A stretch of 64,000 bases of DNA, taken from sequence record OK254198.1; one strand, 5' to 3'. The notes under the pieces are model-generated. The model did not search any database. It was not told the origin of the DNA and saw only the letters and a list, made by a program, of their open reading frames with translations. Source of the DNA: Escherichia phage PSD2001. Position numbers and translations under genes: made by a program. Every line of letters starts with the position of its first letter. The first letter of the stretch is position 1. Below are positions 2,150 to 20,602 of this stretch, in pieces.

Positions 2150-2440
2150 TCAACGGTTATGTTTTAAAATACTATAAAGCGCTTCTACTTGGCTTGCATC
2201 CAGGTAAATAACATCATCATCTTGCTCAATGGAAATCCCGCCAGTATTACCTTTAACAAAATTACATTCGCACACTTCAACTGGGCGGTATACGTCACCA
2301 ACTGGATGCTCAGGCTCCAGAACAATCACACCATTTTCAGAATTACCACTTGGGTCATATAACATTACAGTTTCCTCGCTAACCATGAAAAGAATAAACC
2401 AATTAAAACAGGCCCTACAGCCATTGTTAACCAAGCCCAA
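2150..2440 (-). CDS. Hypothetical protein
   Basis: 96 aa ORF in operon context. Confidence 0.5.
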   Translation of the reverse strand: MGLVNNGCRACFNWFILFMVSEETVMLYDPSGNSENGVIVLEPEHPVGDVYRPVEVCECNFVKGNTGGISIEQDDDVIYLDASQVEALYSILKHNR

Positions 2441-2456
2441 GGTTCAAGATAGTAAA

Positions 2457-2714
2457 TCATCTCATGCTCCTATGCCAACAGTTTCTTGGCTCACGTTTAA
2501 AAATTTCATCATGCATTGATTGACAACCAACACAATATATCACGCCTTTAATCGCTTGTCTCCGCGCTTCAGGAATTTTTTCGTCGCAGTCAAAACAGAA
2601 TTCAGCAGACTCCCTTTCAACTGCAACTTGCGCTCTCGCATGGGTGATAGTGGCTTGGACAACCGCTTCCATCTCTAACTGTTCAGCACCATCTTTTGCA
2701 AATCCAACAGCCAT
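2457..2714 (-). CDS. TraR/DksA-family C4 zinc-finger protein
   Basis: 85 aa; 'CFDCDEKIPEARRQAIKGVIYCVGCQ' = CxxC-x17-CxxC with EARR spacing typical of TraR/DksA zinc fingers. Confidence 0.6.
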   Translation of the reverse strand: MAVGFAKDGAEQLEMEAVVQATITHARAQVAVERESAEFCFDCDEKIPEARRQAIKGVIYCVGCQSMHDEIFKREPRNCWHRSMR

Positions 2715-3347: not shown

Positions 3348-3398
3348 TCCTCAGTAGTTGATGGGATAATAGTACACCCTTTTTATGGTGTTGTAAAC
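3348..3398 (-). promoter_or_regulatory. PeSS-like early promoter cassette (-35 GTTTACA, -10 TACTAT, TATCCCATCAACTACTGAGGAG arm)
   Basis: Minus-strand read GTTTACA-17nt-TACTAT-TATCCCATCAACTACTGAGGAG; shares the GATGGGATA/TATCCCATC module with other copies. Confidence 0.55.
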
Positions 3399-3440
3399 CC
3401 CTAAATGAAAAAAGGTCCACCCGAAGGCAGACCTTTTGAA

Positions 3441-19739: not shown

Positions 19740-19815
19740 TGGTACCTCTAGAAGGACTCGAACCCTCACCTTTAACCTTAGAACGATTATATGCTATCCG
19801 TTACACTATAGAGGC
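19740..19815 (-). tRNA. tRNA-Arg (anticodon TCT), CCA encoded
   Basis: Manual fold: acceptor GCCTCTA/TAGAGGT (one G-U), D-arm, anticodon stem TAATC/GGTTA with loop GTTCTAA, T-arm GAGGG-TTCGAGT-CCTTC, then ACCA. Confidence 0.8.
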
Positions 19816-20527: not shown

Positions 20528-20602
20528 TGACCCAGACCAGATTTGAACTGGTAACCTTTCCCTTATGAGGGGACTGCTGCTAACCAATTGAGCTACAGGG
20601 CC
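20528..20602 (-). tRNA. tRNA with anticodon CAT (Met or Ile2)
   Basis: Manual fold: acceptor GGCCCTG, anticodon loop CTCATAA, perfect T-arm ACCAG-TTCAAAT-CTGGT; one acceptor mismatch and a 3-bp D-stem. Confidence 0.7.

Follow-up and report, generated by a model that had tools for sequence, protein, structure and literature searches.

A small zinc-finger protein of the TraR/DksA superfamily, apparently YbiI-type, encoded by the T4-like Escherichia phage PSD2001

The zinc-finger gene and its neighborhood

The stretch of Escherichia phage PSD2001 DNA analyzed here (record OK254198.1; 64,000 nucleotides, referred to below as the window) contains a minus-strand gene for a small zinc-finger protein within a tightly packed group of short open reading frames (ORFs). 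The features of the locus, with the evidence for each where it applies, are as follows.

2457..2714, minus strand: coding sequence of the zinc-finger protein, a putative YbiI-type C4 finger of the TraR/DksA superfamily (ORF, PF01258, PHROG_54 and orthologs)
2679..2714, minus strand: N-terminal tip, codons 1 to 12, MAVGFAKDGAEQ (alignments and codon comparison)
2523..2597, minus strand: C4 zinc knuckle, codons 40 to 64, CFDC-x17-CVGC including IPEARR (Pfam and alignment)
2460..2501, minus strand: basic C-terminal tail, codons 72 to 85, FKREPRNCWHRSMR (alignments and codon comparison)
2365..2460, minus strand: hydrophobic 31-aa ORF, MIYYLEPWAWLTMAVGPVLIGLFFSWLARKL, absent from the ORF list, whose ATG overlaps the zinc-finger stop codon
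3369..3398, minus strand: T4-early-type promoter-like site, GTTTAC-N18-TACTAT, a consensus match only
3410..3437, minus strand: intrinsic-terminator-like hairpin with a 12-bp stem and a T run, closing the upstream rI/rI.-1 unit

The ORF starts with ATG and encodes 85 amino acids followed by a stop codon (MAVGFAKDGAEQLEMEAVVQATITHARAQVAVERESAEFCFDCDEKIPEARRQAIKGVIYCVGCQSMHDEIFKREPRNCWHRSMR). The translation agrees with the first-pass annotation, which had described an 85-aa protein with a CxxC-x17-CxxC finger and an EARR sequence and had left the strand unstated. The cysteines are arranged as C40-x2-C43, 17 intervening residues and C61-x2-C64, and IPEARR corresponds to residues 47 to 52. Since all homologs begin with MAVGFAKDGAEQ, the assigned start codon is correct. 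The start of the gene overlaps the stop codon of the upstream gene (TAATG), and its own stop codon overlaps the start of the next gene (ATGA). Close packing of this kind is usual in T4-type early gene clusters. A codon comparison of six phages reveals purifying selection on the ORF, which is confirmed as a real gene.

The first 8 kb of the window are 92 to 96% identical to the Gaprivervirus phages CJ20, SP18, VR7 and VR20, and judged by sequence, the window derives from a Gaprivervirus, that is, a VR7/SP18-like relative of T4 (Straboviridae, Tevenvirinae). The ortholog in phage VR7 is ORF106c ("hypothetical protein, similar to JS98 ORF095c"), and JS98 ORF095c is an ortholog as well. VR7 ORF106c is located between mobD.3 and mobD.1, in the variable stretch from nrdC.11 to rI/tk. 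T4 retains mobD.5, mobD.3 and mobD.1 at the syntenic locus, and tblastn of the syntenic T4 region (nrdD to vs.1) found no zinc-finger counterpart (best E = 5) and likewise no trace of the 31-aa ORF or of the next downstream gene. The T4 genes mobD.2 and mobD.2a were considered as relics of the zinc-finger gene and rejected, as neither gave a tblastn match better than E = 5. T4 as a whole lacks the gene according to the 2015 genome note on phage Moon (PMC4319498). As T4 has no such gene at the syntenic locus, the zinc-finger gene is dispensable for the T4 programme.

The neighboring genes encode DUF7438 and DUF7189 domains and a MobD.1/y05I-like protein. Downstream, the strand that carries the zinc-finger gene also encodes two uncharacterized proteins: a NrdC.11 homolog (109-1119, minus), which matches Pfam RlaP (RNA-repair-pathway polymerase-beta-type nucleotidyltransferase), and a MobD.1 homolog (1579-2139, minus), in which both "y05I-like putative transcription factor" domains match. 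The window further contains two tRNA genes, tRNA-Arg(tct) and tRNA-Met(cat), at 19740-19815 and 20528-20602, both minus. The AGGAG ribosome-binding site of the 31-aa ORF lies inside the last zinc-finger codons; this ORF is conserved in VR7 (ORF105c) and as SA35RD_102, and it had no match in the fetched T4, PEi20 and CF1 loci. A conserved partner gene, in the style of VP882 TraR-QisA, was sought by tblastn with six neighbors against Kanagawavirus, Moonvirus and two jumbo-phage loci, and none of the six co-travels; no partner is co-conserved within 1.5 kb. Given that no neighbor follows the zinc-finger gene into other genera, the gene behaves as a single-gene module.

The terminator-like hairpin has the sequence AAAAGGTCTGCC-TTCG-GGTGGACCTTTT followed by the T run, and the promoter-like site lies within about 10 nt of it, both on the coding strand. 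Together, these elements (3369-3437) mark the boundary between the rI/rI.-1 unit and a mobD-type small-gene unit. The promoter pattern has 2 matches in the window against 0.63 expected. The site is 650 nt upstream of the zinc-finger gene, which is the fourth ORF after it, and no terminator intervenes; the annotation of phage SA35RD puts an early promoter behind a terminator at the syntenic position. From its sequence and position, the site is likely the start of the transcription unit that holds the zinc-finger gene. The earlier suggestion that the protein acts early in infection is therefore plausible, because the early-like promoter directly follows a terminator and no further terminator separates it from the gene. 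A MotA-type middle promoter was also considered; the coding strand has none near the gene, and the window as a whole shows no enrichment of the pattern. In the jumbo phages TH47 and fENko-Kae01, near-consensus sigma70 promoters (TTGACA ... TATAAT) lie directly 3' of the zinc-finger gene, which suggests that this is an early region there too. The fENko-Kae01 homolog (L011, 1501-1761) is located within a 19.7-kb direct terminal repeat and is thus present in two copies per genome.

Family assignment and distribution

Residues 38 to 66 of the protein match Pfam PF01258 (zf-dskA_traR) with 36.2 bits and E = 5.8e-9, against a gathering cut-off of 24.9 bits, and the protein matches PHROG_54, "DksA-like zinc-finger protein" (E = 5.7e-20). 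Matches to the Pfam families ArfGap, DZR and C1_4 were all under their cut-offs and were dismissed as generic zinc-ribbon similarity, and a defense or anti-defense role was set aside after a PADLOC search gave no match; no other family or defense model in Pfam or PADLOC matched. The first-pass annotation had proposed a profile search as the check on its assignment, with an unrelated family as the outcome that would speak against it. No such family was found, and the Pfam, PHROGs, NCBIfam and PDB sequence and fold searches all led to the TraR/DksA superfamily. Membership in this superfamily is supported.

The subfamily is less clear-cut. The top NCBIfam model is the YbiI-type NF008243, which covers residues 1 to 71 and scores 74.9 bits against a cut-off of 96. 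The TraR models are likewise below their cut-offs (TIGR02419, 52.2 versus 59.7; NF010268, 30.3 versus 108), and the DksA model NF033459 scores 13.2 against a cut-off of 105, the protein having a single predicted N-terminal helix and 85 residues. In the PDB sequence search, E. coli YbiI (2KGO) was matched with E = 3.9e-9 and RNA polymerase-bound TraR (5W1S/6N57) with about 1e-4. Since the scores are under the curated threshold of each named subfamily, the protein is a superfamily member without a strict subfamily. Its sequence nevertheless points to a YbiI-type rather than a TraR-type protein, with the tip FAKDGA and no DxxDxA. Hence, the original "TraR/DksA type" label holds at the level of the superfamily and needs amending below it: the protein resembles chromosomal YbiI more than it does TraR or DksA, and its tip half-matches DxxDxA.

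By tblastn, the protein was found in 685 phage records, mostly of T4-like phages of Klebsiella, Escherichia, Acinetobacter and Aeromonas, but also of Escherichia/Klebsiella jumbo phages and of 250- to 360-kb phages of Erwinia, Serratia, Yersinia and Dickeya. Gaprivervirus orthologs are 96 to 99% identical. [quoted passage not shown] The Pfam domain had already been tabulated for Aeromonas phage 44RR in 2006. As near-identical GenBank proteins are already annotated, the family assignment itself is not new. A literature search found no experiment on any T4-like or YbiI-type member, and on the function of YbiI it found a single "data not shown" remark.

In Mosigvirus phages, a chimera of 49 to 64 aa replaces the full gene (SA35RD_103, at L002 2459-2623; other members are P0047, P0049, P0057, P0059 and P0063; phrog_25948). 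The first ~25 residues of the chimera resemble the N terminus of the downstream DUF7189 gene (52% identity, E = 5e-4), and its last 29 residues correspond to the C-terminal end of the zinc-finger protein and comprise the second CxxC only, together with an intact FKREPRNCWHRSMR tail; the matching regions of the window are 2150-2365 and 2457-2540. One member has a C-to-Y change in the remaining CxxC. The chimera may be a leftover of recombination or else a mini-protein reduced to the tail.

Conserved residues, fold and constraint on the two termini

The tip MAVGFAKDGAEQ contains the motif G-[FW]-A-x-D-G-A-x-Q and, counted from the start, the YbiI N-terminal motif M-A-x-G-[FW]-A-x-D-G-A-x-Q. Among 211 retrieved relatives, a start of the form M-x-x-G-[FWY]-A-x-D-G-A-x-Q is present in 140 and DxxDxA in 27, with both in 3. 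In the PSD2001 protein, DxxDxA is only partial (F5-A-K-D8-G-A10): the second Asp and the Ala are kept, and the residue corresponding to TraR D3, three positions before D8, is F5; F or W stands there throughout the YbiI clade. In a MAFFT alignment, D8 and A10 align with D6 and A8 of TraR and lambda Orf73, although matching D8 to D6 of TraR shifts the register by one residue with respect to the zinc knuckle. The distance from this Asp to the first Cys is 32 residues here and 30 to 34 in the family (mode, 31); counted directly, the distance is 31 residues in TraR and 29 in lambda Orf73, which is fully active, and an equivalent placement of D8 is therefore compatible with the range of 29 to 34. 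The tip is two residues longer than that of TraR, in which S2 is already 4.3 Å from the catalytic Mg.

TraR-like activity needs DxxDxA in the N-terminal helix, R48/R49 of the globular domain and the C-terminal helix (PMC9239242). The second of these elements is conserved: R51 and R52 align with TraR R48 and R49, which contact the rim helices and beta'Si3, and both are among the residues invariant in 57 sequences (C40, C43, I47, P48, R51, R52, G57, C61, C64 and Q65). On the first, the D3N change cripples lambda Orf73, and X. bovienii Gp34, which lacks D3, binds RNA polymerase as well as TraR does and inhibits rrnB P1 more weakly (PMC9239242).

An AlphaFold2 model built from the 57-sequence alignment (mean pLDDT, 73) has a helix at residues 5 to 33, the zinc knuckle and a helix at residues 62 to 71 (pLDDT 67 to 86), with a poorly defined tail of low confidence. 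The best matches of the model in a Foldseek search of the PDB were YbiI, RNA polymerase-bound TraR (6N57_M, TM score 0.60; 5W1S_M, 0.59; both by target) and DksA. The protein is thus predicted to have the three-part layout of TraR. In the complex of TraR with RNA polymerase described by Chen et al. 2019 (PMC6970531), the N-terminal helix extends outward from the active site along the secondary channel, while the beta' rim helices support the globular domain and the beta lobe-Si1 supports the C-terminal helix.

Across the 57 homologs, the first 12 and last 14 residues are almost fixed while the middle varies freely. Codons were compared among this window, VR7, Edwardsiella phage PEi20, Citrobacter phage CF1 and the 350-kb jumbo phages TH47 and fENko-Kae01, and the pairwise differences, summed across the six phages, were as follows.

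N-terminal 12 codons: 80 synonymous, 0 non-synonymous
Middle 60 alignment columns: 295 synonymous, 350 non-synonymous
Last 14 codons: 62 synonymous, 9 non-synonymous

These counts bear on whether the ORF might be decaying or hitch-hiking in the hyperplastic mobD region and functionless in PSD2001. The lack of a counterpart at the syntenic T4 locus and the Mosigvirus phages, which hold only a truncated chimera with one CxxC, would fit such a reading. However, the full-length protein is retained in several genera (Gaprivervirus, Kanagawavirus and Moonvirus) and in 350-kb jumbo phages, its four cysteines are invariant, and its termini change only synonymously, so that we regard this reading as extremely improbable and as effectively refuted by the codon comparison.

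The C-terminal tail follows the pattern FKRxPRNCWHRSMR, which is basic, clade-specific and nearly invariant. Its codon differences include switches between AGC and TCT for Ser and between AGA and CGT for Arg. We considered whether its conservation could be due to the next gene, whose ribosome-binding site and start overlap it, and rejected this, as the tail is identical in jumbo phages with unrelated downstream sequence. Because the tail is kept through synonymous switches and despite unrelated downstream DNA, the constraint acts on the protein. The tail of the YbiI family, (Y)NRRGSKDSQLR, is absent and PRNCWHRSMR stands in its place; intermediates such as HNRKVWHRSMR in P0068 make the latter look like a variant derived from the YbiI tail. 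The T4-like phages KP15 and Shark of Klebsiella and Bhz15 of Acinetobacter carry the YbiI tail of bacteria, YNRRGSKDSQLR, unchanged. The proteins concerned are encoded at L012 151-411 (KP15), L014 109-375 (Bhz15) and L015 109-375 (Shark); they share this tail with E. coli ybiI (L005 3191-3457), though identity elsewhere is ~35-40%. A likeness of the YbiI tail to ArfA (GSYMRKGKH versus GYNRRGSK) covers about seven basic, low-complexity residues that are missing from the PSD2001 tail, and was discarded as too weak. The tail and the F-for-D tip are the only new angle that the protein offers.

This pattern of constraint raises the question of whether YbiI-type proteins, that of PSD2001 included, target something other than RNA polymerase, with their likeness to TraR reflecting a shared scaffold. 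In that case, both invariant termini would grip another conserved host machine or a nucleic acid. It is the termini that are most constrained here, and they differ from those of TraR; the YNRRGSKDSQLR tail is identical between bacteria and Klebsiella and Acinetobacter phages at ~35% overall identity, for which TraR biology gives no explanation; ybiI adjoins the fiu-ybiX iron genes; and it has been cautioned that some C4 finger proteins of the family are unlike DksA in action (PMC9239242). However, the protein keeps the IPEARR residues that contact RNA polymerase as well as the acidic and C-terminal helices, over-expressed YbiI has been reported to rescue the auxotrophy of a dksA mutant (data not shown in PMC2613031), and neither a match to another family or defense model nor a co-conserved partner points elsewhere. 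On balance, we consider a target other than RNA polymerase improbable. Equally speculative, and in our view just as improbable, is a broader version of this idea, in which YbiI-type proteins including the phage clade would form a functionally distinct class within the TraR/DksA superfamily that uses the zinc knuckle only as a scaffold. The ends, G-[FW]-A-x-D-G-A and a basic tail ending in R, would then do something beyond TraR, for example, hold RNA polymerase at two points and so extend to nucleic acid or a second site, or engage a different conserved host machine. YbiI would have been taken up by virulent T4-like and jumbo phages and given a new tail (NRRGSKDSQLR to RNCWHRSMR) for host takeover.

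Possible action on RNA polymerase and comparison with known systems

[quoted passage not shown] It would bind host RNA polymerase without DNA, as TraR and lambda Orf73 do. With its acidic N-terminal helix (residues 5 to 33) inserted into the secondary channel, the protein would bring its invariant tip, G4-F5-A6-K7-D8-G9-A10, close to the active site. The zinc knuckle (IPEARR, R51/R52) would dock onto the beta' rim helices, with the C-terminal helix (residues 62 to 71) pointing towards the beta lobe; the basic tail may contribute as well. An invariant tip fits insertion beside an active site that is itself invariant in the host. We infer that initiation kinetics would be shifted independently of ppGpp, such that promoters with short-lived open complexes (rRNA and ribosomal-protein promoters) are disfavored, and that host DksA and Gre factors would be kept from the channel, freeing polymerase for phage promoters. 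Against this reading stand the incomplete DxxDxA (with the effect of D3N in lambda Orf73), the one-residue register shift and the subfamily scores under their cut-offs, as well as the invariant basic tail without a TraR counterpart, the iron-related role favored for YbiI by Blankschien et al., the lack of the gene at the syntenic T4 locus and the mean pLDDT of only 73 for the model.

An unlikely, though not far-fetched, variant is that the protein is a channel plug or competitor and not a TraR-like allosteric regulator, and that it excludes DksA/ppGpp or GreA/GreB, or blocks the active site with its longer tip; phage transcription would then be insulated from the host stringent response. This variant draws on the same fold and rim-helix residues as the favored reading, and the tip lacks the first Asp of DxxDxA and extends two residues further than in TraR. 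Moreover, the tip aspartates of DksA are required for function and not for binding (PMC9239242), and in Rnk there is already an example of a channel binder whose only action is to compete. However, Gp34 inhibits rrnB P1 despite its lack of D3 (PMC9239242), the reported complementation of dksA by YbiI speaks for a DksA-like activity beyond mere occupancy (PMC2613031), and a passive plug would not obviously require an invariant tip.

Should the favored reading as a TraR-like regulator prove right, virulent T4-like phages would possess a modulator of host RNA polymerase that works independently of ppGpp, alongside the classical T4 tools Alt/Mod, AsiA/MotA and Alc. All phage TraR homologs tested experimentally so far come from temperate phages or prophages. 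The practical value of the present assignment is modest, because the family is already named in GenBank and in the literature; what is sharpened is the hypothesis of a YbiI-type protein with both termini constrained and a conserved tail that TraR lacks. The PSD2001 protein may also serve as a convenient small model for the function of the uncharacterized YbiI family.

E. coli YbiI (b0803; 2KGO; NF008243/PRK11019), the best match in both the PDB and NCBIfam, is of similar size (88 versus 85 aa) and shares the start M-A-x-G-[FW]-A-x-D-(G/D)-A, the IPxARR finger and a basic tail ending in R. However, the two proteins are only 35% identical and end differently (YNRRGSKDSQLR versus PRNCWHRSMR), and ybiI is chromosomal, next to the fiu-ybiX iron-uptake genes, whereas the PSD2001 gene is phage-borne. 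Blankschien et al. thought an iron-related role for YbiI more likely (PMC2613031). The Moon and UPEC01 proteins are direct orthologs with no material difference from the PSD2001 protein.

With F-plasmid TraR (5W1S, 6N57), the protein is predicted to share a small, single-helix, ppGpp-independent type of architecture without a coiled coil, but identity is 29%, DEADEA of TraR is FAKDGA here, and the 14-residue conserved tail is missing from TraR. The phage TraR homologs that have been tested, namely, lambda Orf73, P2 Orf82, VP882 Orf61, VHML Orf8 and X. bovienii Gp34, are likewise phage-encoded proteins of 70 to 85 aa with the same domain, and all five bound RNA polymerase and inhibited rrnB P1 (PMC9239242). 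These five have TraR-type termini and belong to temperate phages or prophages, whereas the PSD2001 protein appears to be YbiI-type and belongs to a virulent T4-like phage; furthermore, VP882 TraR works with the partner QisA, and no conserved neighbor of the PSD2001 gene was seen. DksA, finally, has the zinc-finger domain in common with the PSD2001 protein, and its tip, D74-R-A76, resembles D8-G-A10, but at 151 aa it is larger, has a two-helix coiled coil and is ppGpp dependent. DksA and TraR share one site on RNA polymerase.
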